From positions 42,744-106,743 of the forward strand of contig JAUYLZ010000018.1 of NCBI GenBank assembly GCA_030698385.1: a DNA stretch of 64,000 bases, given 5' to 3'. Of the stretch, positions 1,873 through 45,280 are shown piece by piece. The translations under genes were made by a program, and so were the position numbers. Under the pieces are notes generated by a model. That model was not told where the DNA came from. It worked only from the letters and a program-made list of their open reading frames with translations, and ran no database searches. Numbering within the stretch: the stretch's first letter is position 1; every line of letters begins with the position of its first letter. The DNA comes from a bacterium (GTDB taxonomy: Bacteria; Patescibacteriota; Patescibacteriia; Patescibacteriales; XYC2-FULL-47-12).

Positions 1873-3252
1873 TTACTTTCGTCTCCATGTCGTTCCAGTT
1901 TGGCTATCCTCAAGAATGACACTGTTGGTAGAGAGGTGTTTGCGAATACGATCAGCAGTGGCAAAATCACGTTCCTTTTTTGCCTTGTTACGTTCGGCAA
2001 TAAGTCGCTCAATTTCACCTTCCGCAAGATCATCCGCTCGCCCCGCCTCAAACCACTTTACTGGATCTTCAGCGAACAGACCAAGCAGTTCACCCGCTGC
2101 CCTAAATGAAGCAATTGCCTCAATTCTGGCACTACCCGTAAGCTGCATGGCGGTATCTCGCAATGCATGAAGTACTGCAATTGCTACAGGTGTATTGAGG
2201 TCGTCATGAAGAGCAACAACAACATCCTGAGGCGGAGTACTCACAGGCACATCAGGAGCTTCTCTAAGCAGTCGATAGAAACGATCAAGTTGCTGTTTCG
2301 ACTGTTCAAGTAGCCCATCGGTCCAGTCAAACGGTTGTCGATACTGTGCGGAAAGCAATGAAAAGCGTAATACTTCACCGTGCCATTCCCGTAGCAGATC
2401 GTGCATGATAATAATGTTCCCAAGCGACTTGGACATTTTATCCGTGCCCATGTTGATAAAACCGTTATGCATCCAGTAGCGCGCAAGTGGCGCTCCCCCA
2501 TGCGCACAAGACGACTGGGCAATCTCGTTTTCATGGTGTGGAAAGCGAAGATCTTGTCCACCCCCATGAATGTCGATTGTCTGGCCGAGCTCATGCTCTA
2601 TCATGGCGGAGCATTCCAGATGCCAACCGGGCCGACCACGTCCCCAAGGGCTATCCCAACCGGGCTCATCGTCTTTCGACGGCTTCCACAATACAAAATC
2701 CGCAGGATTTTGCTTGTATGACGCAACTTCAACACGTGCACCCGCAAGCATCTCTTCGCGATTAATTCCAGAGAAAGAACCGTATCCGTCGAATTGTTCT
2801 ATCGCGAAGAGAACGTGGCCTTCTGTTACATACGCAAAACCTTTTTCCAGAAGTTCACATACCATAGAGATCATTCTGTCGACATAGTCGGTAGCCATGG
2901 TCACTACTGTTGGCGGAAGCACATTGAGCTTATGGGACTCATCACGATATACGGCTGAATATTTTGCCGTAATTACTCCAATCGGCTCACCGGTTTCTTG
3001 CGATGCGTGGATGATCTTGTCATCTATGTCCGTATGATTATGGGCATAGACGACGCTGTCCACGCCATATTTGTGTCGCAATACTCGGAAAAGCTGATCA
3101 AACACAACCGTTGATCGGTAGTTACCAATGTGAGGATAACTATATACCGTAGGACCGCACGCATACATCGTAACCCGCTTGTGGTCAGTTGGAAGAAAAA
3201 CATGTTTCTTGCGTGTCGCGCTGTCGAAAAGAACAAGGTTTGAATTTTTCAT
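1873..3252 (-). CDS. cysS: cysteine--tRNA ligase
   Basis: 459 aa. HIGN (HIGH-type) and KMSKSLGN class I motifs are present, with CysRS-like length and layout. Confidence 0.9.
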   Translation of the reverse strand: MKNSNLVLFDSATRKKHVFLPTDHKRVTMYACGPTVYSYPHIGNYRSTVVFDQLFRVLRHKYGVDSVVYAHNHTDIDDKIIHASQETGEPIGVITAKYSAVYRDESHKLNVLPPTVVTMATDYVDRMISMVCELLEKGFAYVTEGHVLFAIEQFDGYGSFSGINREEMLAGARVEVASYKQNPADFVLWKPSKDDEPGWDSPWGRGRPGWHLECSAMIEHELGQTIDIHGGGQDLRFPHHENEIAQSSCAHGGAPLARYWMHNGFINMGTDKMSKSLGNIIIMHDLLREWHGEVLRFSLLSAQYRQPFDWTDGLLEQSKQQLDRFYRLLREAPDVPVSTPPQDVVVALHDDLNTPVAIAVLHALRDTAMQLTGSARIEAIASFRAAGELLGLFAEDPVKWFEAGRADDLAEGEIERLIAERNKAKKERDFATADRIRKHLSTNSVILEDSQTGTTWRRK

Positions 3253-3321: not shown

Positions 3322-3394
3322 CCAAAAACTTTGGTGTCTGGATAAATTATACCAATAACATAAAATAATAGCAAAAAAGTTTGACATTGTCAAC
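3322..3394. repeat. 73-bp intergenic module, copy A (bidirectional promoter with palindromic -35)
   Basis: Repeated at 18626..18698 with 4 mismatches by eye. Contains the hairpin CGCCAAAaacTTTGGTG and the palindrome GTTGACAtTGTCAAC, which gives TTGACA on both strands. On plus, TTGACA-18nt-TATAAT lies ahead of 3422. On minus, TTGACA-17nt-TATTAT lies ahead of cysS. Confidence 0.8.
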
Positions 3395-3421
3395 GGTGCC
3401 GCTATATAATGAAAGTATAAA

Positions 3422-4183
3422 GTGAAATATAAAATGTACAATACTATTACTAAAAATCAATGGCTCAAAAAATTACAGATTTCACCAACAGCGGTACCTG
3501 ATATTTTTGTTATACACGGCAGTATGTTTTTTAACAAGAGAGTGAAAGAAATCAAAAAGTTTTTAAATAGCAGTCAGGTAGTGCCTGATTTACCTATTGT
3601 TCTAGGAAAACTTGAAAAGCAAAAGGTGGGTATCTCAGTGGCGTACGGTGGACCGATGGCTTCAGAATTTGCTCACATATTCTCTGTATTAGGTACAAAA
3701 GTTATCATACAGACCGGAACATTTGGCGGGTTAAAATCAGAATTGATGCCTGGCGATTGCTGTATACCAAAAGCAGTTTTCCCCGGTGATGACGCATCTG
3801 GCTACTATACAACAAAAAAAACCGTCGCATTACCTACGAACGGTCAATTAAGAAATATACTGGCGGAAAAATTACAGTCTGCTGGCGTATCGTATTGTTC
3901 GGGGAATGTCTTTACAACAGCTGCGATGCTCGCAGAATCTGAACGTGATCTACAGTCCTTACAACGGCAAGGATATTGTGGTATTGACTTGGAAACCGCT
4001 GCGGTCATTGCTGTGGCGCGGTCATTTAAGATACCGGCTGCCGCCATGTTACGTATGGGTGAAAATTTAGCGTTGCATCAAAATAACATTACCGATAAAA
4101 TTGCCGCTGGAGCAACAACAAATATTGCGCTGTGGCATATTGCCATTACAGCGGGTATAGAGTATGTTAGCAGGAATAAGTAA
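3422..4183 (+). CDS. nucleoside phosphorylase (PNP/UDP family)
   Basis: 253 aa. Contains VIIQTGTFGGL and CGIDLETAAV segments typical of the PNP_UDP_1 fold. Confidence 0.65.
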   Translation: MKYKMYNTITKNQWLKKLQISPTAVPDIFVIHGSMFFNKRVKEIKKFLNSSQVVPDLPIVLGKLEKQKVGISVAYGGPMASEFAHIFSVLGTKVIIQTGTFGGLKSELMPGDCCIPKAVFPGDDASGYYTTKKTVALPTNGQLRNILAEKLQSAGVSYCSGNVFTTAAMLAESERDLQSLQRQGYCGIDLETAAVIAVARSFKIPAAAMLRMGENLALHQNNITDKIAAGATTNIALWHIAITAGIEYVSRNK

Positions 4184-4223
4184 TTGTACTTACCCCTGCT
4201 AACAGTTATGTTGCGGTGATGCT

Positions 4224-4298
4224 TTATTCGCATACCCCGCAATGATCGTGCTGATCAACTACCGTTGCGTCTGTAACGAGATCCTCTTTCACGCTCAT
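4224..4298 (-). CDS. small Cys-containing peptide coupled to the radical SAM gene (candidate RiPP precursor)
   Basis: Not in the track (<60 aa). The minus-sense sequence is TGAaAGGAGGTGATGAGCGTGAAAGAG..., encoding MSVKEDLVTDATVVDQHDHCGVCE*. If the GTG at 4292 is the start, 6 nt after GAGGTG, the product is fM-KEDLVTDATVVDQHDHCGVCE. The SD overlaps the rSAM stop codon. Confidence 0.4.
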   Translation of the reverse strand: MSVKEDLVTDATVVDQHDHCGVCE

Positions 4299-4307
4299 CA
4301 CCTCCTT

Positions 4308-5468
4308 TCATGAAAGAACAGAGTGGGGACAACCGGGATGAATAATCGGCTGTTCATATAAGTCTTTATTTTTAAAATAGCTGAATGCTCTAGCCCACAT
4401 ACGACAAATTTTTTGGCATCCGGCGCACCCCGTGTTTTCCCGCCGGACATTTCTAAAATTACGAAATGCGTCACTAGACCAAATTGCATCCAAAGTACTA
4501 GTTAAAACGTTACCCCCTAACAATTCAGTAACGCCGTCAAAATATGGAAACGGATAACAATCACCGTTAGCGCTCACATACATAAAGAGGCGTGCTCCTA
4601 TTTCCGTGTGCCATTCCACTGGCCAAGAGTAACTACTGATTTCACCTTTGTCAAAGGGATGAAGAATAATTAGGTTATTCTTTGCAGCGCGAAGCTTATT
4701 GATCACCGACCATGACTGGAAGAGCACATCGTTAGCAAGCTCGTCCGTAATTTTAGAACGACCATTGAACACTTGACGAGCTAACTTCCAGCTGGAAACT
4801 CTGCCTCGCAGATACTCTGCAATGTCAATCAAATCATTAATGTTGGACTGGTCTAATGTAGTAGTTACTGATAATTTTGCCCATTCCGGTTTTGACGACC
4901 ATAAGTAGTCAAGTGCTTGTTGTAGAGCGTCCCACATTTTTTGCTTGCCAACCCAGCGATTAAAGTTCTCCGCAAAAGAATCCATAGAAATTTGGATGGA
5001 AAAAAAGTAGCGCCAGAGCTCAGACGCTAAGTCTTGCCTCTTGCCAATAGCAACTCCATTGGTTAGCAGTTTCTGCTCAAAACCTAACTCATGGGCAAAA
5101 TTAACAAATTCCAAAAAATTCTTTCTGGTAAAAACTTCTCCGCCAGACCATTCAATTTGTAAGACCCCCCATGCTTGCAAAGCAGACAATAAATCTTTAA
5201 TTTGTTGTTCGGTCATTTCTTTTGGCAGCGGATTGCCTGAATTGACAAAACAATGAGGACAACCAAGATTGCAACGGTTGGTAAATTGAATCTGCACTTC
5301 AATAGGGACTGACATACCGTTGAATACTTGACTGGTTGGAATACTACATAACGAAGTGTCGCAATTGATTTTATTAGCATCGTCAAGGCAATAAATGCGC
5401 CCTTTGTGTGAAAACAGATACTTTTTCACTGATGGCTCAAAACGAAACAATTCTACCATAATCATCAC
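4308..5468 (-). CDS. radical SAM protein with C-terminal SPASM/twitch-like Cys cluster
   Basis: CNLGCPHCF (CxxxCxxC) occurs about 65 aa from the N-terminus. C-terminal features are GDCYPFPY...GCAGCQKIC...GCPH. The likely true start is MVELF at 5459, 6 nt after GAGGTG. It has its own TTGACA/TAAATT promoter upstream. Confidence 0.8.
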   Translation of the reverse strand: MMIMVELFRFEPSVKKYLFSHKGRIYCLDDANKINCDTSLCSIPTSQVFNGMSVPIEVQIQFTNRCNLGCPHCFVNSGNPLPKEMTEQQIKDLLSALQAWGVLQIEWSGGEVFTRKNFLEFVNFAHELGFEQKLLTNGVAIGKRQDLASELWRYFFSIQISMDSFAENFNRWVGKQKMWDALQQALDYLWSSKPEWAKLSVTTTLDQSNINDLIDIAEYLRGRVSSWKLARQVFNGRSKITDELANDVLFQSWSVINKLRAAKNNLIILHPFDKGEISSYSWPVEWHTEIGARLFMYVSANGDCYPFPYFDGVTELLGGNVLTSTLDAIWSSDAFRNFRNVRRENTGCAGCQKICRMWARAFSYFKNKDLYEQPIIHPGCPHSVLS

Positions 5469-5550
5469 CTCTATTTAATTTTAATGTACAACGTATTTCT
5501 AATTTACACCCTCTGGCACATTTGTCAATTGTTACGGCCTACATTCACAT

Positions 5551-5608: not shown

Positions 5609-8050
5609 TCATTGCAATGTAAGTTTTACATCAGGATGTGTTGTTTCGTACAACTGACCACTTGTAAGGTTCTGATTTAATGTCCCATGACAAGCATTCG
5701 CAATGCCTATAAGGTCTGGTAACATTTGTTGGATGAGCTTGTTCTCTGTGTGTAGAGAAATTGCGGAAATTGTCCCCCGATAATCTCCAACAACCTGGGA
5801 CTTGAAATGACGAACTTTGTTAAGTAGTTCAACAAAAATTTCGCCGATTTCCAATAACTCATTATTATCGTAGCCTGTATTGGTTACAGGCCATTCACAA
5901 GTGTGAATTGAAGTGTGTTCCGCCACTTTAAATACATTATGATAAATTTCTTCTGTAACAAACGGCAAAAAGGGAGCCATAAGCTTAAGGAGAGTATCTA
6001 ATGTATAGTGTAGCGTAAATGTCATTGATGTTATGTCTGTATCGGGGTATTTTTCTGGGTGCCATGTTCTATCCTTACAAAGTTCAAGATAGTTATCACA
6101 GTACTTCACCCAAAAAAACTTTTCCAATGATATTCTAGCCGCATTGTAGTCGCATGCACTCAAGCTGGTTGTGCAATTTTTAATAACATGCTGAAGCTCG
6201 GCAAGAATCCAGCGATCAGAAAATACAGAAATAACAGATTCTGGCACAACATCATTATCACTTAGGAGTGCCTCTATAAAACGAGCTACATTCCATAGTT
6301 TAATCACTACTTTGCGACCGTTTTTGATATCCTCTTCAGTATAACGAAGATTGTGTCCCAGTCCCGCGTTAGTTGCCCACCACCGTATGGCATCGGCAGG
6401 ATAATGTTGCAACACTGTTTCAATAGCTACAAAATTACCCTTGCTCTTGCTCATTTTTTTACCATTACTATCCAACCCCCATCCGGAAATCATAACATTT
6501 TTCCACGGCAGAGAATTAGTATGGTAATGAGATTTGACGACGGTGTAGAAAAGCCAGGTACGGATAATTTCAAAAGCTTGTACTCGCAAACTCATGGGAT
6601 ATATTATCTCCATGAATCTATCCTCAGCGCCCCAATCAGAGTTAATGAGTGGTGTGAGTGAAGATGTCATCCATGTGTCTAGTACCTGTTGTTCCGCTTC
6701 TAGAATTCTACCTTGACATTTCGAGCAAGACAATTTACTCGGTTGATGTTCTCGCGGATCAATCGGTAACATGTCCTCATCAGGCAAAACAATTTCACCA
6801 CAGGCCTGACAGTACCACACAGGAATAGGAACACCATAAAAACGACTCCGAGAAATACACCAATCCCACTTTAAACATTCTACCCACGCACGGTATTTTT
6901 CCTGCATAAACTCCGGTAGCCACGTCAACTCTTTCCCGCGTTGCAAAAAATCGTCTTTATGGTCCAAAATTTTAATAAACCATTGGGGGGAGGCAACAAA
7001 TTCAACCTGGGTACCGCATCGTTCGTGAACATTTTTTATATATTTGACTGCTTCCTGGTTTACAATAAGACTCTGTTCCTGCAAAGACTGAACAATGATG
7101 CTACGTGCCTGTAATACAGATAAACCTTTAAGTGAACCGGCAATATCAGTAAGCTTGCCGTCAGTCGTAAGTAGCACCCGTGTTATAAGTTTATCTTGTT
7201 TCCATTTTTGGACATCTTGAGCGTCTCCCCATGTACACACCATCATGATACCTGTTCCAATATCCCTATCAACATCAGTATGAGTGAGTATTGGCACAGC
7301 GTGTTGCATGTACGGCACTACTGCTGTTTTACCAACAAACTGAATAAATCGTTCATCGTTAGGATGAACATATAGAGCAACGCAGGCCGGTAACATTTCA
7401 GGGCGTGTGGTAGCAATAGTGAGAGACTGCTTTGTTTCAACAGCTTGAAAGATAATGTGGTACATCACACCTTCACATTGCTCGTCGTCTAAGTCAGCTT
7501 GTGCCAATGCCGTACCGCAGAAAGTGCACCAAAACGATGGTGCATTTTCTCGATACACAAAACCATCTTTAAATAGTTCTAAAAATGATTTTTGTGATAC
7601 ATATTGTGCTCTATTGCCAATGGTACTGTAGGACAACGACCAGTCAACACCTATACCAAGCTTGTCCCAAATATTGTGATAAATCTGTCTACCTTTTTCT
7701 GTTTCTTGGAGACACAAAGATATAAAATCACCGCGTGATATTTCTTGTTTATTTATCTTGTATTTTTTCTCCACGAAACGTTCCGTAGGCAAGCCATTAT
7801 CATCAAAACCCATGGGATAAAAAACGTTATATCCCTGCATGCGTCGAAATCGCGTGATTATCTCAGCTTGAATGTAAGACATAGCATGCCCCACATGTAG
7901 ATGAGATGAGCTAACATACGGCGGTGGCGTATCAACGGAAAAAACTGGTTTCTGATTACTTTCACGTTTGAAAGCATACACTTGACTTTGCGTCCAATTT
8001 TTCTGCCATTTTGCTTCAACTTCTAGTGCGTTATACTTTTTTTCTATCAT
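5609..8050 (-). CDS. valS: valine--tRNA ligase (archaeal-like type)
   Basis: 813 aa. Contains DTPPPYVSSSHLHVGH...PMGFDDNGLPTE, DWCISRSRFYGVPIP and KMSKSKGN. Distinguishing Val from Ile/Leu rests on my recall of the N-terminal motif. Confidence 0.75.
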   Translation of the reverse strand: MIEKKYNALEVEAKWQKNWTQSQVYAFKRESNQKPVFSVDTPPPYVSSSHLHVGHAMSYIQAEIITRFRRMQGYNVFYPMGFDDNGLPTERFVEKKYKINKQEISRGDFISLCLQETEKGRQIYHNIWDKLGIGVDWSLSYSTIGNRAQYVSQKSFLELFKDGFVYRENAPSFWCTFCGTALAQADLDDEQCEGVMYHIIFQAVETKQSLTIATTRPEMLPACVALYVHPNDERFIQFVGKTAVVPYMQHAVPILTHTDVDRDIGTGIMMVCTWGDAQDVQKWKQDKLITRVLLTTDGKLTDIAGSLKGLSVLQARSIIVQSLQEQSLIVNQEAVKYIKNVHERCGTQVEFVASPQWFIKILDHKDDFLQRGKELTWLPEFMQEKYRAWVECLKWDWCISRSRFYGVPIPVWYCQACGEIVLPDEDMLPIDPREHQPSKLSCSKCQGRILEAEQQVLDTWMTSSLTPLINSDWGAEDRFMEIIYPMSLRVQAFEIIRTWLFYTVVKSHYHTNSLPWKNVMISGWGLDSNGKKMSKSKGNFVAIETVLQHYPADAIRWWATNAGLGHNLRYTEEDIKNGRKVVIKLWNVARFIEALLSDNDVVPESVISVFSDRWILAELQHVIKNCTTSLSACDYNAARISLEKFFWVKYCDNYLELCKDRTWHPEKYPDTDITSMTFTLHYTLDTLLKLMAPFLPFVTEEIYHNVFKVAEHTSIHTCEWPVTNTGYDNNELLEIGEIFVELLNKVRHFKSQVVGDYRGTISAISLHTENKLIQQMLPDLIGIANACHGTLNQNLTSGQLYETTHPDVKLTLQ

Positions 8051-8949: not shown

Positions 8950-8962
8950 TCAAAAAGAAAAT

Positions 8963-9035
8963 TGGGTACGACGGGGGTTGAACCCGTAACCTCTAGAGCC
9001 ACAATCTAGCGCTCTGCCAGTTGAGCTACGCACCC
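8963..9035 (-). tRNA. tRNA-His (anticodon GTG), A73, no encoded G-1
   Basis: Hand-folded as GGGTGCG TA GCTC AACTGGCA GAGC G CTAGA TTGTGGC TCTAG AGGTT ACGGG TTCAACC CCCGT CGTACCC A. The base 5' of G1 is T. No CCA is encoded. Confidence 0.85.
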
Positions 9036-9048
9036 ATTAAAGATCAAT

Positions 9049-10455
9049 TTATTTTGTTAGTGAACATATTGTAGCAACACATTCGCTAACTGTCAATACC
9101 TGCTGTGTTCGCTTTGACATATTTTTGAGTTGCGCTTTCTTTTGCCGCAACTCATCCGGACCAATAATAATCACGAATGGAATATCTTTTCGTTGCGCGT
9201 AAGCGAGTTGCGCGCGTAGCGTGTGGTCCTCGCCGAGGTACAGCTCGGTACGAATTCCCGTGCTACGAAGTTCGGCACAACAGTGGAGGGAGGCATTACG
9301 CAACGCGCCATCCGACTGGTCAAAAATAGTTACAAGAACATCTGTTAGTGTTTCTTTCACTGTAACTAAGCCAAGTTGTTGCATCCCTACCAGCAATCGA
9401 TCTACGCCGACAGACGCACCGACGCCGGGAATGTTACTCCCCGGCATAAAACGATTCGTCAGGCCGTCAAAACGCCCACCCGAAAAAACACTGCCAAGTT
9501 TTGACAGATCGGTTAGTACGGTTTCAAACACCGGTCCGGTGTAGTAGTCCAGCCCACGGGCAACTGAAAGATCAAAGCACCAATTCGCCTCGGGAATATC
9601 GAGTACACGCAATGTTGCCACGATAATTTCAATTTCTCTTATACCATCTTCTCCGACATTTGACTTGCCGCAAAAAAACTCCTTGAGTTGTGCAATAACA
9701 TCTTGCGTGCTGTCTCCGCGTATTTCCAAAAAACTTTCCACCGCTGTTGCCTGTTCGGCGGAAAATGCTAGTGCTGACTCATCATACTCATTATCCGGTT
9801 GTCGCTGCATTTCTACCAGCACGCCTTCAATGCCGATTTTGTCCAGCTTGTCAATAACACGCAACATCTCGCTCGCCCGCTCACGGCAGTTAACAAGTTC
9901 GGCAAGACCATTGAGCAGCTTGCGCGTGTTAAAGCGGATGAGGAAATTTTTGATGCCGAGCGCGGTCATCGTCGCATACATTACCTGTATGACTTCCACA
10001 TCCGCGAGAATGGAATTTGAACCAATAGTGTCAAAATCAAACTGGTAAAACTCGCGGAAACGACCGGCCTGCGGTTTTTCACCGCGCCACACCCGACCAA
10101 TCTGATACCGCTTGAACGGCTTGGGCAAATCAGGATAAGCGGCGACAACGCGCGCCAGCGGTACCGTTAGGTCAAAACGCAATGTATAGTTTTGTTCCCA
10201 CGTTGCATTAGCAATCTTTTCATCCTCAATGCCGCGCGCGATACGAGCGGTGAAGATGCTTTTCTCCACCTTGGCATTGCCGGTGAGTACATCCCAGCGC
10301 TCCATGCAGGGCGTTTCTAATGGCACAAAACCAAATGATTCATATACTCGGCGAATGGTTGCGATCATATCCTGAAACATAATCGCTTCCCCGGGCAGCA
10401 TATCCCGAAACCCGCCGAGTAACTCTGGTTTGATTGTTATTGTTTTGGTTGACAT
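9049..10455 (-). CDS. hisS: histidine--tRNA ligase
   Basis: 468 aa. Contains GFRDMLPGE and motif 2 WRGEKPQAGRFREFYQFDFDTIG. The REFYQxDFD form resembles eukaryote/archaeal-like HisRS. Confidence 0.9.
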   Translation of the reverse strand: MSTKTITIKPELLGGFRDMLPGEAIMFQDMIATIRRVYESFGFVPLETPCMERWDVLTGNAKVEKSIFTARIARGIEDEKIANATWEQNYTLRFDLTVPLARVVAAYPDLPKPFKRYQIGRVWRGEKPQAGRFREFYQFDFDTIGSNSILADVEVIQVMYATMTALGIKNFLIRFNTRKLLNGLAELVNCRERASEMLRVIDKLDKIGIEGVLVEMQRQPDNEYDESALAFSAEQATAVESFLEIRGDSTQDVIAQLKEFFCGKSNVGEDGIREIEIIVATLRVLDIPEANWCFDLSVARGLDYYTGPVFETVLTDLSKLGSVFSGGRFDGLTNRFMPGSNIPGVGASVGVDRLLVGMQQLGLVTVKETLTDVLVTIFDQSDGALRNASLHCCAELRSTGIRTELYLGEDHTLRAQLAYAQRKDIPFVIIIGPDELRQKKAQLKNMSKRTQQVLTVSECVATICSLTK

Positions 10456-11816: not shown

Positions 11817-11932
11817 TGTTAAATATGTTCGATATAAAATTTAACATCAAGGCAATCTCCCATCTCTTACGCGATGAGGGATATTATTTTGCTCTTTAAC
11901 AAAATTCAATGGAAATGAAGGGAGAAAGTAAG

Positions 11933-12898
11933 ATGTATGACAACTCGCTATCAATAATAATTGATACGGATCCGGGTGTTGATGACGCGCTCGCGATTAT
12001 GTTTGCGCATCGTGCGAACATGCTGGCGGTACGGGGCATTACCACGGTCTTCGGCAATCAAAGTATTGAGAAAACCACACGAAATGCCTGTACAGTCGTT
12101 GACATTATCGGCGCAGAAGCCCTAATCTACCGTGGTGCTTCCCGTCCGCTCGTAAAACAAGCTTTTTGCGCGGAAAGCCACGGTGAAACTGGACTCGGCG
12201 GTTATTGGCAGAATGGTGAACTTCGTAATGATAAACCGCTCACGCAGCCAGTCGAAAACGCCAATGCAGTAGATTTTCTGGCACAAACAATTTCAATGGG
12301 AACAATGATTGCGTGTATAGGACCTGTCACCAACCTTGCGATACTCGCAAATCTCTGCCCGGATGTTCTCCGCAGAGTACAATCGCTTATCGTAATGGGC
12401 GGCGTCTTCGGTGAACCGGGCAATACCACTCCGTGGGCGGAATTCAATGTTTACTGCGATCCGGATGCGTTCGCACAACTGCTCGCCTTTTCGGATGTGA
12501 GTAAAGTACTAATTCCGGCGAATATCTGCCGAACAGTAACCATGGATGAGGATGACTTTATTGGTATTCAAAATCAAGCGCTCTCCAGCGCCATCAAAGA
12601 CATTGTCAGTGAATATGTTGCTTACTACCGCGGCGAACACGTCTACGGCGGCTTTGCCGGAGGCATCATGTATGATACGCTCGTCATCGCTTACATTCTC
12701 TGGCCGGAACTTTTCAATACTACGCCCAGACATGTGGTGGTTGAAACCGGTAATGGCTCCGCGCGCGGCGCGACCGTAATTGACCGTAAACGAGATAACG
12801 AGCCGAATTGCCTGCTCGCTTGTCCTAGCAACGAAAAGCCGCTTGGCGTGGATGCACAAGAGGTGAAGCGTCGTTTGTTACAACTTCTATCTGGATAA
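11933..12898 (+). CDS. nucleoside hydrolase (IU-NH family)
   Basis: IIDTDPGVDDALAIMFA aspartate cluster. Start moved to MYDNS (GGGAG, then 8 nt, then ATG). The track ORF starts at 11909. Confidence 0.85.
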   Translation: MYDNSLSIIIDTDPGVDDALAIMFAHRANMLAVRGITTVFGNQSIEKTTRNACTVVDIIGAEALIYRGASRPLVKQAFCAESHGETGLGGYWQNGELRNDKPLTQPVENANAVDFLAQTISMGTMIACIGPVTNLAILANLCPDVLRRVQSLIVMGGVFGEPGNTTPWAEFNVYCDPDAFAQLLAFSDVSKVLIPANICRTVTMDEDDFIGIQNQALSSAIKDIVSEYVAYYRGEHVYGGFAGGIMYDTLVIAYILWPELFNTTPRHVVVETGNGSARGATVIDRKRDNEPNCLLACPSNEKPLGVDAQEVKRRLLQLLSG

Positions 12899-18725: not shown

Positions 18726-19913
18726 TTAAAACTCCTGCCGAATGCCAATCCCCAGCATCCAGCCGTTTAAATCAATATCTCCGGCGCCGATGTTGCGCGC
18801 GCTAACTGAAATGCGCCGATCGGCAAAGTAGTAACCGGCACCGAGGTCAAGGTAGGTGTGTTTGACAATTTGGCAACCAACCCCGCCGGTAACAATCCAG
18901 CCGGCTCCGTCCGGAATTGACGGCGGCGAATAGTCGGGCGTGCCGGCAGACATCCAAGCTCCGCCGAGCCGCAAAGTCCAAACTTCGTCCGGCTCGTACT
19001 CCAGCCCGGCGTGCACCGCATCAACCGCGCTCCATCCCAGGTCCAAAACATTCACAGGTAAGTTATCGTAACGAACCGCTACTTGATCATTTTTGCCATA
19101 GTCGGTGCGAAAGTATGATACTCCCGCTTTTAGTTCTTCCAGCGCCTGCCAAGATAAGCCAACCCCGAAACGCTCCGGCTGATAAATACCGGCGGACATG
19201 TTGTCGCTCGCAATGCCCACTCCGGCCGGAAATTTAGTCTCGCCGTCAATACCAACTTTAACTGACGGCGCATACACCAAGCCAAGCTTGAACGGGTCAA
19301 AGCGGAACAGCAGGCCAAGCTGAAACCCATAGCCGAAACCATCGGCTTCGGTTGTGGTCAAACCAAGCAACGCTGTGCCAGTCTGATCCAGCAACGGCAT
19401 CCGTAAATCCGCATCGCCATAAACAGTTTTGAACGAGGCGCCTAACGAAAAATACTCGTTAAACTCGTAGGCGGCGCCAAGCGTTACGTCGACAAACGAC
19501 AGATAGGTGTCAAAGCCTAAGCTGTCGCCGTAGTCCGCCGCCAGACCATAGGGCGCGTCAATACCGAGAGCAAAAACTAAGTCCTGCCAGCGGTACGCGA
19601 CCGCGCCGTAAGGAAACAAAAAGGTTTCATCTCGCGCCGCAAAATGACCGCCGCCTAAAATTAAATCACGATCATAGCTGAAATTTGTTGTCAGCCCGAC
19701 CAAACCCAAATCCCAGGCCCACTTATCAATTGCGGTAAGCGCGGCCGGGTTCAAAAATACCGCGCTGGCGCCATTGGGATCGGCAACCGTAAAACCACCT
19801 GCGGTTGCCAAGTCGCGGGCGGTAATGCCGTTCGCGGGACGATTAAGCGCGCCAGCCAAGCTTGTCTGAATAAAAACAACTAGTAACGCCAAAAATACCA
19901 CGAATCTTTTCAT
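18726..19913 (-). CDS. FadL/TodX-type outer-membrane transport protein
   Basis: 395 aa. Signal peptide MKRFVVFLALLVVFIQTSLAGA, alternating beta-strand pattern, terminal aromatic residue (..IRQEF). Visibly more G+C-rich than its neighbours. Confidence 0.65.
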   Translation of the reverse strand: MKRFVVFLALLVVFIQTSLAGALNRPANGITARDLATAGGFTVADPNGASAVFLNPAALTAIDKWAWDLGLVGLTTNFSYDRDLILGGGHFAARDETFLFPYGAVAYRWQDLVFALGIDAPYGLAADYGDSLGFDTYLSFVDVTLGAAYEFNEYFSLGASFKTVYGDADLRMPLLDQTGTALLGLTTTEADGFGYGFQLGLLFRFDPFKLGLVYAPSVKVGIDGETKFPAGVGIASDNMSAGIYQPERFGVGLSWQALEELKAGVSYFRTDYGKNDQVAVRYDNLPVNVLDLGWSAVDAVHAGLEYEPDEVWTLRLGGAWMSAGTPDYSPPSIPDGAGWIVTGGVGCQIVKHTYLDLGAGYYFADRRISVSARNIGAGDIDLNGWMLGIGIRQEF

Positions 19914-43615: not shown

Positions 43616-45280
43616 CTAAACTGCTACTTCTTTAGGAAGTTCCTCTTGGCTTGACTTTGATTCTAAATGAGCCAAAAACCAGCTCAAACAATTGGCAAAC
43701 GACTGAGCTGTCGCTTGAGTCGTATCAAGATCAACTGAATGGCCGGTAAACAGATTGTGGCCATTATTTTCTACGCGAATCCGAGAAAAAACCGTGGCCA
43801 ATCCTTCAGTACCACCGCCTTTAACAAGACCAGCTTTCCAATCGTCAAGTTTTATTTCCCAATTATTTAAATCGGGGAAAAAATGCTTGGCGGCGGTCAA
43901 GACGGCTTTCATCACGGCGTCATATGTTCCGTCTCCTGAATTTGTTACGGTAACGGAATTTCCGTTAACTGCCATAGATACCGCGGCGGTCGGAATCGTG
44001 CCGCTGCCGCCAAATGCCTGACAGTGAGTAATATTCATGAGATAAGGAACGTCATCTACGCAATCTTGAACGATGGCCGCTATCTCTTCTTCGGAAGCCT
44101 CTCTCATGTTCTTTGATTCTGACAGCCGCATCACCTGTTCATAAATTACCTGCAACTGGTCTCTAGCCACCTTGTAACCCATTTCCTCAAGTTTTTTTTG
44201 CACGCCGGGACGACCAGAGTTAACGTCAATGACATAATTAAACTTGACGCCATGGCCATACTTGGAAGGATCCCAGCTGTAATAAGGACTGGTTTTATTC
44301 TGCTTCTCGGCCTTTTCCTCAATGCCTTGGTGCGTGCCCGCGCTGCAAATTTTATTCTGTTCCCCAACCACCGGCCAATGACGCGGCACGGTCATACCAA
44401 GCTTATTGGCAATGAAGTGAACTATTCTGCAACAATGACTAATGTCAAAATTAACTGCCAAGTTGACAAACCTAATATCTTGCATACAATCACTGCGTGT
44501 GGCCAAATTCCAAAGAATTGATTCGAATTTTGTCATGCCGCTGCGCTCACCCAGTCCAAAAAAAGTTCCTTCAACAATACTTGCGCCCCGCAAAATTGCC
44601 TGCAAAGCATTGTTGGTTGCGTGATCACTGTCGTTATGACAATGGACTGAAATGTGCGCGTCGGCAATATTTGAAACACGTTCAAATAATGTTTTAATAA
44701 TGCTTCCAAATTCATCACCAATTCGCAAACCGGTTGTGTCTGGAATGTTTACCACGGTGGCGCCGGCGTCTATAACGGTCTCGACAATCTCACACAGAAA
44801 ATCAATTTCAGTGCGTGCGGCATCTTCGGGAGAAAATTCCACATGTTCAAAACCGATACTGCGCGCGTATCGCACTATCCGCTCGGCAGTATTTAGATAC
44901 CACTGCTGTTTCCCCTCTTTGGTATCCCCATACTTGCTGTCATAAAACTGGGTCAAAAGCAATTCGTCGCTGGTTGGAATATAGATATGACACAAATCAC
45001 AACCGGCTTCCTTAACCGCCATCACACCTTTCTCCAGCGCAATTGTCAAACCGCCTAAGAGCGGCCTATCTTCCACACTCAGTTCATTAACAAACTTAAC
45101 AATTCTTTGACAATTTTCCATTTGCTTTTGCGAGCTATATGGATAGCCAATCTCAATTCGATCAATACCGCCATCAATCAACATTTTAACATAGGTTAAT
45201 TGATCCTGCGGCGACATGGAGCCACCTTCAACCTGCGCTGACTCCCGCAAAGCTACATCGTTTAATAATATCCTTCTCAT
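43616..45280 (-). CDS. leuA: 2-isopropylmalate synthase (with C-terminal LeuA regulatory domain)
   Basis: 554 aa with an HMGL-like barrel (IEIGYP, HCHNDSDHATNNAL) and a long C-terminal domain. Followed by terminator AGAGCCATT..AATGGCTCT plus a U run. Confidence 0.8.
   Translation of the reverse strand: MRRILLNDVALRESAQVEGGSMSPQDQLTYVKMLIDGGIDRIEIGYPYSSQKQMENCQRIVKFVNELSVEDRPLLGGLTIALEKGVMAVKEAGCDLCHIYIPTSDELLLTQFYDSKYGDTKEGKQQWYLNTAERIVRYARSIGFEHVEFSPEDAARTEIDFLCEIVETVIDAGATVVNIPDTTGLRIGDEFGSIIKTLFERVSNIADAHISVHCHNDSDHATNNALQAILRGASIVEGTFFGLGERSGMTKFESILWNLATRSDCMQDIRFVNLAVNFDISHCCRIVHFIANKLGMTVPRHWPVVGEQNKICSAGTHQGIEEKAEKQNKTSPYYSWDPSKYGHGVKFNYVIDVNSGRPGVQKKLEEMGYKVARDQLQVIYEQVMRLSESKNMREASEEEIAAIVQDCVDDVPYLMNITHCQAFGGSGTIPTAAVSMAVNGNSVTVTNSGDGTYDAVMKAVLTAAKHFFPDLNNWEIKLDDWKAGLVKGGGTEGLATVFSRIRVENNGHNLFTGHSVDLDTTQATAQSFANCLSWFLAHLESKSSQEELPKEVAV

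Follow-up and report, generated by a model that had tools for sequence, protein, structure and literature searches.

A short reading frame on contig JAUYLZ010000018.1 raises the question of whether a radical S-adenosylmethionine (rSAM) enzyme and the peptide encoded directly behind it constitute a peptide-maturation system, and which chemistry such a system could perform. The analysed stretch of this contig comprises 64 kb (the window; all positions below follow its numbering). An earlier note on this DNA had proposed that an rSAM enzyme of the peptide-maturase type is paired with an unrecognised short peptide ending in HCGVCE. The core of this reading holds: the small open reading frame (ORF) appears to encode a precursor peptide paired with an enzyme of this type, and the ORF, its leader and its core are conserved in all 16 lineages compared. 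The pair had been described as a unit of its own, with no accessory gene adjacent. Its gene signals were confirmed, and no exporter or protease is linked to it, but the convergent gene for an NP-I (PNP_UDP_1) nucleosidase-like protein is co-conserved in 15 of the 16 lineages and belongs to the unit as a third member. On balance, and with moderate confidence, the locus is read here as a new system resembling those of ribosomally synthesised and post-translationally modified peptides (RiPPs), in which a conserved three-gene cassette would modify a ribosomal peptide with the aid of a nucleosidase dedicated to an adenosine moiety.

The principal evidence comes from homologous loci. A search of 5.8 billion proteins with the enzyme returned about 50 close homologues (36–86% identity); their DNA was obtained by exact look-up or from collections of genomes and metagenomes, and was dereplicated to 16 lineages with readable flanks (designated by L numbers). 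An ORF of 22–46 codons flanks the enzyme gene in every one of them, the enzymes being 39–89% identical. It lies just downstream of the enzyme gene in 15 lineages and upstream of it in L007, where it has been relocated to a position upstream of the NP-I gene with its sequence preserved. Two findings that the earlier note regarded as fatal to its proposal, homologous enzymes lacking an adjacent small ORF and a peptide frame that is not conserved, were not obtained: the ORF accompanies the enzyme throughout, and both the frame and the C-terminal core are kept. A short precursor gene beside a modifying enzyme, with leader and core conserved, is the arrangement by which RiPP loci are recognised, and it was found in 16 of 16 lineages.

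The peptides share a leader of the form M-K-x-x-L/M-hydrophobic-x-x-A/S-x-x-V/I (MAFFT alignment), which reads M-K-x-x-L-x-x-x-A-x-x-V in the window peptide, and the distance from leader to core is constant. Twelve of the 16 lineages carry a hydrophobic-Cys core at the C-terminus, mostly H-C-x-V-C (H-C-G-V-C-E in the window), while the cores of the other four are free of Cys. Peptides of this family are encoded in L001 (MKRKLLRSAVRVVRSGHCMVCE), L002 (MKTKLLSRAVKITANKGHCGVCGPGN), L003 (MKQLLVKRARKLRTASGHCAVCADG), L004 (MKNLLEVSVPVVRVVHTCVCLD), L011/L012 (MKEDLITEATVVDQHDHCGVCE), L020 (MKRRLISRAVRLTKQKGHCGICDTG), L023 (MKKCLVKKATKVASATTAAVCE), L026 (MKERMLKKAKVVAQPSHCQVCE), L029 (MKKKMVKKAVKVSGKPNSCVCSG), L031 (MQKLLVVSVPVVRVAHTCVCVD), L032 (MKEELIRSGSATEIVRTEQCLVCNG), L033 (MKQKMIESGNAVEVSRSISCCVCE) and L027 (46 residues, C-terminal ..KHCGVCE). 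Two more, from L013 (MKTKMIESGKAVEIPRIGGCCMCEWGE) and L017 (MKTMLLLRAVKITKAKGHCGVCGPG..), agree with the family and were left out of the count of 16 because their contigs are short and the flanks too short. The sole invariant feature of the Cys-type cores is the hydrophobic-Cys pair itself (V, I or M, then C), which is followed by 1–4 residues; most cores also have a His and, 2–3 residues upstream, a second Cys, but not all do (L023 has TTAAVCE). Codons vary between loci, and the peptide residues are kept. Between the window and L012, whose enzyme is 89% identical, the peptide ORF differs at 3 of 72 nt, none of these changes falling in the core codons.

The Cys-free lineages (L005, L006/L022, L021 and L007) have enzymes 39–43% identical to that of the window. 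Their leader is unchanged and their core is S-S-G-L-T-D, as in MKQILAKKAKKVFGEAKSSGLTDPDEQ. In the MAFFT alignment this core lies under H-C-G-V-C-E: Ser takes the place of the first Cys, Leu that of Val, Thr that of the invariant Cys and Asp that of Glu, and Gly coincides with Gly. The correspondence points to a common reaction of the two groups at a nucleophile-x-hydrophobic-nucleophile segment, and it speaks against every mechanism with a strict requirement for a Cys donor.

More distant enzymes are accompanied by recognisable peptides as well. That of L009 (enzyme 29% identical; MSKVLKRARKIKFCSAKGMVCSN) preserves the leader and, close to its C-terminus, a hydrophobic-Cys. Another relative of the enzyme, also 29% identical, lies within a ThiF-YcaO-DUF6176-rSAM-peptide-GNAT cluster of L034 (257-4838); its peptide MKSGIIASLLKKGRKVKKAMSMICMSA ends in ..KKAMSMICMSA, so that a hydrophobic-Cys stands close to the C-terminus, and its leader is still basic. 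This locus may represent a related RiPP family that joins azoline or thioamide formation with radical chemistry.

At the locus itself, the expression signals described in the earlier note were all found in the sequence: the rSAM stop at the Shine-Dalgarno (SD) site of the peptide gene, the GTG start 6 nt past GAGGTG, the ATG directly behind the site and the ORF ending in HCGVCE, as well as the same GAGGTG-6nt-ATG spacing in front of the rSAM gene (5471-5466, ATG 5459). The rSAM stop codon abuts the SD site AAGGAGGTG, an arrangement which implies translational coupling of the two genes. Behind AAGGAGGTG the frame reads ATG (4298), AGC, GTG (4292, 6 nt past GAGGTG), with the translation (MS)VKEDLVTDATVVDQHDHCGVCE. 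Translation could also begin at the ATG at 4298, directly after AAGGAGGTG (24 residues), or at a GTG at 4301. GTG 4292 is favoured as the start (22 residues) because of the SD spacing in the homologues and their MK- starts; in L001, for example, the start region is AAGGAGGTGATATTT-ATG-AAG. SD sites of the AAGGAGGTGAT type stand at a window-like spacing in most loci, and both site and spacing are the same as in the window in L001, L011/12, L017, L020 and L026. No SD was seen in front of the peptide ORF in a few loci, e.g., L004, L013, L023 and L029. An exact-sequence look-up identified the enzyme as NCBI MDP3899835.1, recorded as 'radical SAM protein' on a 112-kb MAG contig, and returned no record of the peptide, whichever of the three possible lengths was taken. 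The peptide likewise has no family match in NCBIfam, Pfam or PADLOC scans, and a motif scan found no second H-C-x-V-C ORF in the 64-kb window.

The enzyme matches the Pfam families Radical_SAM (PF04055, 69 bits, cut-off 29.5) and SPASM (PF13186, 31 bits, cut-off 21.5). Its CxxxCxxC motif (C63, C67 and C70) is invariant in 35 aligned sequences. Downstream of the rSAM core the only invariant Cys in this alignment are C345-x2-C348-x3-C352 and C377, and in most members V, A, S or Y stands at the two upstream positions where the seven-Cys SPASM motif has Cys. The canonical motif (Cx9-15Gx4C...Cx2Cx5Cx3C...C, two auxiliary 4Fe-4S clusters) is thus not present, four invariant Cys being found. C345 and C348 align with the CxxC of PqqE, a motif that we take to correspond to the second auxiliary cluster of SPASM enzymes. 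Because C345, C348, C352 and C377 are the only invariant downstream Cys, the enzyme probably carries one auxiliary Fe-S cluster, not two. The Cys-rich auxiliary-cluster region suggested earlier for the C-terminus was recovered as a SPASM match, but in an atypical form with four invariant Cys instead of seven.

The part of the protein ahead of CxxxCxxC, about 60 residues, had been considered a possible peptide-recognition region. The extension is present (C63 being the first Cys of the motif), but it is not a canonical PqqD-like RiPP recognition element (RRE; a winged helix of three strands and three helices). The PqqD domain (PF05402) is matched neither by the window enzyme nor by any other member of the core family, and an AlphaFold (AF2) model built from the 35 sequences (pLDDT 92.5) shows residues 1-45 as four beta strands with no helix. 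R6-x-E8-P9, F16 and G20 are invariant or near-invariant in this N-terminal domain. The leader may be bound to the beta domain by strand pairing.

The closest solved folds (Foldseek) are SkfB, peptide-bound SuiB and CteB, and next come BlsE, PqqE, EpeE and the anaerobic sulfatase maturase anSME; the top PDB sequence match is SkfB (110 bits). Among curated NCBIfam models the enzyme comes nearest to MftC (TIGR03962, 96 bits, cut-off 265, residues 45-366), then, all far below their cut-offs, to WgkB (81 bits), StsB (76), PqqE (70.6) and SkfB (64). These top curated matches are all peptide or cofactor maturases. No NCBIfam cut-off is reached by any of the 35 family members, the best member scoring E = 2.4e-27 against the MftC model. 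With this result and the SkfB/SuiB/CteB folds, assignment to a non-peptide rSAM family, the third outcome that the earlier note saw as damaging, was not obtained.

Several named families were tried and rejected. The enzyme is not the sactipeptide maturase SkfB (64 bits against the TIGR04403 cut-off of 300) nor PqqE (70.6 bits against the TIGR02109 cut-off of 381, with no pqq genes nearby). It is not the mycofactocin maturase either, since the score is 96 against 265 bits, the partner genes mftB/D/E/F are missing from the window locus and from the other loci, and the peptide tail is not Gly-Val-Tyr. No curated anSME model was matched. For anti-phage defence (PADLOC), the sole match is a generic likeness of the rSAM core to pVip (78 bits), and the NP-I proteins have none. 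The enzyme family is rare: among 1.84 billion representatives (HMMER), about 7 clusters at 50% identity score above 360 bits and about 8 more score 250–300 bits, beyond which lies the SPASM background.

The third gene was traced by tblastn with the window NP-I protein and three homologues. In 15 of the 16 informative lineages an NP-I homologue accompanies the enzyme gene or the peptide gene at a distance of no more than ~220 nt. It is convergent and downstream in the window, L011/12, L001, L002, L003 and L020, and divergent and upstream in L004, L023, L026, L029 and L031. Co-directional arrangements occur in the order enzyme-peptide-NP-I (L027, L005, L021), NP-I-enzyme-peptide (L033) or peptide-NP-I-enzyme (L007). 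The linkage spans both Cys-containing and Cys-free cores, and the remaining neighbours vary from locus to locus. Because the adjacency outlasts inversions and reordering among highly divergent proteins, it indicates that enzyme, peptide and NP-I protein are one functional unit of three genes. The gene tables of the 16 lineages list no linked exporter, protease or immunity gene.

The reverse association, from the NP-I subfamily to the enzyme, is poorly sampled, with 18 NP-I relatives obtained from a word-indexed protein search. The distant relatives P0077 (L037) and P0081 (L036) stand in unrelated gene contexts; a contig ends 160 nt from P0076 (L035), and the 32-codon ORF upstream of this gene is unrelated. 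Enzymes about 30% identical to that of the window were found in L008 and L009, metagenome-assembled genomes (MAGs) binned as Gammaproteobacteria. A matching peptide is encoded in L009, where tblastn found no NP-I gene; the nucleosidase link may be specific to the core enzyme family. The carriers with a name, which are few, are Saccharibacteria, Paceibacterota/'Pacebacteria' and other Patescibacteria MAGs. Sensor kinase genes (HisKA_7TM or GAF-HisKA) occur at or near the cassette in L026 (1481-3094), L027 (10934-11197) and L031 (742-2244), in L027 together with a response regulator; the window has no sensor kinase equivalent. A 62-codon ORF with an extremely Cys/Asp-rich tail (..GCDDDGCDCDCVDCIDCVCDHGPCDCDL) was noticed 2 kb downstream of the cassette of L007, a Paceibacterota MAG (7131-7319, plus strand).

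The NP-I protein belongs to Pfam PF01048 (PNP_UDP_1) and fits no curated NCBIfam family. The window protein scores 55 bits for AMP nucleosidase (cut-off 264), 37 for HpnG, 36 for DeoD and 28 for MtnN; across the cassettes HpnG is matched at 35–40 bits (cut-off 187) and futalosine hydrolase at 20–31 (cut-off 125). Membership of the MtnN family was rejected on both curated models for methylthioadenosine/S-adenosylhomocysteine (MTA/SAH) nucleosidase (NF004079/TIGR01704), with 27.7–33.6 against 169 bits and 24 against 73.8 bits. The AF2 model (pLDDT 89) superimposes with a Foldseek TM score of ~0.78 on hexameric UP, MTAP, PNP and AMP nucleosidase, and the top PDB profile match is 5'-methylthioadenosine phosphorylase of S. 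solfataricus (124 bits).

The active site was compared by alignment with E. coli DeoD and MtnN, with residue numbers and roles (R87, R24, E181, D204) as established for E. coli PNP and MTAN. All cassette proteins keep the ribose-binding Glu (DeoD E181), and the base-protonating Asp (DeoD D204) is Asp or Glu; together with the fold, these are the features of NP-I enzymes that cleave nucleosides. None of the 15 cassette proteins has the phosphate-binding Arg (DeoD R87); Q, H, L, A or S stands in its place, and the hydrolase MtnN has N at this position. The protein thus lacks the phosphate-site Arg that marks nucleoside phosphorylases of the DeoD, Udp or MTAP type. Since the ribose and base residues are kept and the phosphate-binding Arg is lost as in MtnN, it is predicted to be a nucleoside N-ribohydrolase. 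A further Glu beside the base-binding loop (E168 in window numbering) is invariant and specific to the subfamily.

Table 1. Features of the cassette and of its surroundings in the window (JAUYLZ010000018.1).
Feature	Position	Strand	Remarks
radical SAM enzyme gene, SPASM-like C-terminal domain	4308..5459	-	383 aa; ATG 5459-5457, stop TGA 4310-4308
GAGGTG Shine-Dalgarno for rSAM gene	5466..5471	-	6 nt 5' of rSAM ATG
Shine-Dalgarno AAGGAGGTG for peptide gene	4299..4307	-	directly 3' of rSAM stop TGA
precursor peptide gene (predicted)	4224..4292	-	22 aa from GTG 4292, stop TAA 4226-4224, product MKEDLVTDATVVDQHDHCGVCE
NP-I (PNP_UDP_1) nucleosidase-like gene	3434..4183	+	249 aa; convergent with peptide gene
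promoter-like TTGACA-16-TAAATT	5501..5528	-	5' of rSAM gene, downstream of valS terminator; consensus match only, 10/12
valS hairpin terminator	5582-5557	-	consensus scan
promoter-like TTGACA-18-TATAAT	3381..3410	+	5' of NP-I gene; consensus match 12/12
18-bp hairpin between peptide stop and NP-I 3' end	4165..4204	.	folding energy and z-score
cysS	1873-3252	-	
valS	5609-8050	-	969 bits
tRNA-His	8962-9036	-	
hisS	9049-10455	-	
inosine-uridine nucleoside hydrolase	11909-12898	+	
FadL/TodX-type outer-membrane transporter	18726-19913	-	
LeuA-like 2-isopropylmalate synthase	43616-45280	-	

The features of the locus are collected in Table 1. The TTGACA/TAAATT promoter behind the valS terminator, which the earlier note had placed in front of the rSAM gene, was recovered together with the terminator by a consensus scan, and the identity of valS was confirmed. 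Two near-perfect sigma-70-like sites stand back to back at 3365-3410, in a divergent intergenic region of 170 nt; the second of them (TTGACA-17-TATTAT, minus strand) is directed at cysS. The hairpin at 4165-4204 has no U-tract, overlaps the final NP-I codons and lies directly 3' of the peptide stop. Its folding energy is -25.6 kcal/mol on the minus strand (z -7.5) and -20.7 on the plus strand (z -5.7), and a compensatory A>G / T>C change is found in L012; it is probably a shared bidirectional terminator.

The cassette is surrounded by aminoacyl-tRNA synthetase genes (cysS, valS, hisS) and tRNA-His; valS also adjoins the cassette in L027, and cysS in L031. The position of a core containing the dipeptide Val-Cys beside valS and cysS is probably a matter of synteny or coincidence. 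The FadL/TodX-type and LeuA-like genes of the window are not typical of Patescibacteria, the lineage of most named cassette carriers.

The favoured mechanism could proceed as follows. The enzyme would bind the leader of the 22-residue peptide (MK..L..A..V), likely through its small N-terminal beta domain. Once S-adenosylmethionine (SAM) had been reductively cleaved, the 5'-deoxyadenosyl radical would take a hydrogen from the core (H-C-x-V-C, 1–4 residues before the end). The reaction would most likely leave an intramolecular cross-link of the thioether type, or a related oxidation, at the hydrophobic-Cys; the Cys-free S-S-G-L-T-D group could form the oxygen equivalent at Ser/Thr. The electron would be taken up by the single auxiliary Fe-S cluster (CxxCxxxC...C). 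The NP-I hydrolase would then strip adenine from an adenosine-derived SAM product, most simply from free 5'-deoxyadenosine. This compound inhibits radical SAM enzymes and is cleaved by NP-I enzymes of the MtnN/MtnP type (PMC8102628). The modified peptide may remain in the cell, since no exporter or protease is linked.

Several points weigh against this reading. Thioether formation is proposed by analogy with SkfB and CteB, and the AuxI Cys ligands used by these two are absent from the present enzyme. A cross-link from a Cys donor could not be the reaction common to the family, given the Cys-free sister group and the missing first Cys of L023. No other RiPP rSAM cluster is known to us that has a 5'-deoxyadenosine nucleosidase to itself; a role confined to clean-up would be unusual, and it offers no obvious reason for so tight a linkage. 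The window NP-I gene is transcribed separately, from its own predicted promoter. Finally, L032 has no NP-I gene within 3 kb. As an observation on that locus, the divergent upstream slot of NP-I is filled there by a dNK/AAA_18 kinase-like gene, which belongs to nucleoside handling (2384-2959, minus strand).

Alternatively, the product could be an intracellular peptide-derived cofactor, or a thiol- or metal-binding factor, comparable with mycofactocin or pyrroloquinoline quinone (PQQ), and not a secreted natural product. This proposal, which is compatible with either chemistry considered here, is possible though unlikely. It would agree with the lack of linked exporter, protease and immunity genes in the 16 lineages, with top curated matches to the cofactor maturases MftC and PqqE, with carriers that are small-genome uncultivated bacteria, with the housekeeping genes cysS, valS and hisS around the cassette, and with the resemblance of the H-C-x-x-C tail to a metal- or redox-active motif. 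However, the core of a cofactor precursor is normally invariant, and here the spacing shifts, the first Cys is sometimes lost and one group is free of Cys. Additional tailoring enzymes and partner oxidoreductases are not linked to the cassette, and a rare, patchy family (~7–15 clusters at 50% identity in the 1.84 billion representatives) is unlike what an essential cofactor would require.

The nucleosidase could also act on the peptide itself. The 5'-deoxyadenosyl radical would then be joined to the core, for instance to a cluster-bound Cys thiolate, after which the NP-I protein would remove adenine. The intermediate, S-(5'-deoxyadenosyl)cysteine, would be a peptide-bound analogue of MTA/SAH, and the final product a 5-deoxyribosyl (S-ribosyl-type) peptide. 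Such adenosylation is improbable, yet it deserves real weight because a dedicated clean-up enzyme for one RiPP maturase has no known precedent. The tight, orientation-independent linkage of rSAM and NP-I genes mirrors known rSAM-adenosylation pairs: HpnH adenosylates its substrate and the PNP homologue HpnG then cleaves adenine, while MqnE opens the futalosine pathway by the same kind of radical addition (PMC13459092). An MTA/SAH-type analogue belongs to the substrate class of the NP-I fold, the best solved relative of the NP-I protein acts on a 5'-thio-substituted adenosine, and HpnG and futalosine hydrolase are among its weak NCBIfam matches (35–40 bits for HpnG). A second such pair is completed by MqnB, an NP-I-fold hydrolase that removes the base in the futalosine pathway. 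The missing phosphate-binding Arg, as in nucleosidases, and the invariant extra Glu (E168) beside the base-binding loop would fit this role too.

Against peptide adenosylation, the homology of the enzyme to HpnH and MqnE does not reach past the rSAM core (neither is among the best 25 of its 61 NCBIfam matches), and its whole-length relatives are SPASM/twitch maturases that abstract hydrogen. No olefin is available as acceptor in an unmodified ribosomal peptide, and the Cys-free SSGLTD cores would require another acceptor than Cys. A literature search found no natural peptide adenosylation by an rSAM enzyme.

Quite improbable is a unit consisting of enzyme and peptide alone, with NP-I as an ordinary salvage gene kept nearby by inherited synteny. 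The window NP-I gene is convergent and has its own perfect promoter-like site, reduced genomes depend on nucleoside salvage (the window encodes a separate inosine-uridine nucleoside hydrolase, 11909-12898), valS and cysS likewise recur near the cassette, and L032 lacks the NP-I gene. However, the adjacency holds over three orientations, both gene orders and enzymes of 39–57% identity, and spans Saccharibacteria, Paceibacterota and unclassified MAGs in which the other neighbours differ by locus. The NP-I proteins, moreover, form their own divergent subfamily outside every curated model, whose more distant relatives (L036, L037) occur in unrelated contexts.

It is extremely improbable that the small ORF is open by chance, or serves as a regulatory leader, instead of encoding a substrate: it is unannotated, and 182 open frames of up to 60 codons in the window match [VILM]-C-x0-4-stop, so that the hydrophobic-Cys motif alone is uninformative and the case for the ORF rests on conservation, but its position, length, leader and core are conserved at the protein level over 16 lineages despite DNA divergence, an SD precedes it in most loci, and in L007 it was relocated upstream of NP-I with its sequence kept.

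The three-gene reading, with hydrogen abstraction at the core and nucleosidase action on the adenosine-derived product, therefore remains the one favoured here. A search of the literature on RiPPs and SPASM enzymes in Patescibacteria, on nucleosidase partners and on adenosylation found no description of the cassette. The precursor family is new, the architecture of the maturase is atypical, and the nucleosidase is a conserved partner. If confirmed, the cassette would constitute a new RiPP-like class in never-cultivated bacteria thought to be poor in secondary metabolism. Its combination of features would be unusual: a very short precursor, a maturase with no usual recognition domain and apparently one auxiliary cluster, and an obligatory partner in the form of a dedicated nucleosidase. 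The link to this nucleosidase may show that a single rSAM enzyme can need its own disposal of 5'-deoxyadenosine, or else that a peptide is adenosylated and ribosylated; adenosylation would be a post-translational modification, and a use of SAM in RiPP biosynthesis, with no earlier description. With three small genes the cassette is easy to synthesise and express.

In relation to known systems, the cassette falls outside every named family tested, whether by curated cut-offs, partner genes, RRE, seven-Cys motif or phosphate site. The likeness to mycofactocin, raised by the earlier note on account of the MftA tail (..CGVY), is a resemblance only. Both systems have a short precursor modified, here presumably, at its extreme C-terminus, with Gly-Val ahead of the target (..HCGVCE in the window); MftC is the top curated match of the enzyme, and neither system has a linked exporter. 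Unlike mycofactocin, the cassette has tails of V-C-E or V-C plus 1–4 residues instead of V-Y, and it includes neither a separate MftB recognition protein nor MftD/E/F genes. MftC carries two auxiliary clusters, whereas the cassette enzyme has four conserved C-terminal Cys, and mycofactocin clusters have no nucleosidase partner.

SkfB with SkfA, CteB and SuiB (which forms Lys-Trp cross-links) are the closest solved structures by sequence and fold. They share with the cassette a Cys-containing precursor encoded beside the enzyme and a leader-core organisation. The cassette enzyme, in contrast, is below all their NCBIfam cut-offs and has no PqqD-like domain; it also lacks the Cys ligands of AuxI, the cluster that binds the donor Cys in CteB-type enzymes, and its system includes Cys-free sister cores and a nucleosidase partner. 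As a further relative of the rSAM/SPASM fold, anSME accepts a Cys or Ser target, which parallels the Cys-type and Ser/Thr-type cores found here. It differs in having two auxiliary clusters, a C/S-x-P-x-R target motif that is absent from the cassette peptides, and a large sulfatase as substrate in place of a 22-residue peptide.

For the nucleosidase, the nearest parallel in gene linkage is provided by HpnH/HpnG (PMC13459092) and MqnE/MqnB, pairs of an rSAM enzyme and a genetically coupled protein of the PNP_UDP_1 fold by which a 5'-substituted adenosine loses its adenine. The likeness does not extend beyond the linkage, since the cassette enzyme is of the SPASM-type peptide-maturase class and its predicted substrate is a ribosomal peptide. 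MtnN and MTA phosphorylase share with the cassette protein the NP-I fold, the ribose-binding Glu and the base-protonating Asp, and MtnN, too, has no phosphate-binding Arg. Enzymes of this type relieve the inhibition of rSAM enzymes by 5'-deoxyadenosine (PMC8102628). They act as housekeeping enzymes, whereas the cassette protein scores far below their cut-offs, has an invariant Glu of its own (E168) and appears to be dedicated to the locus of a single enzyme.

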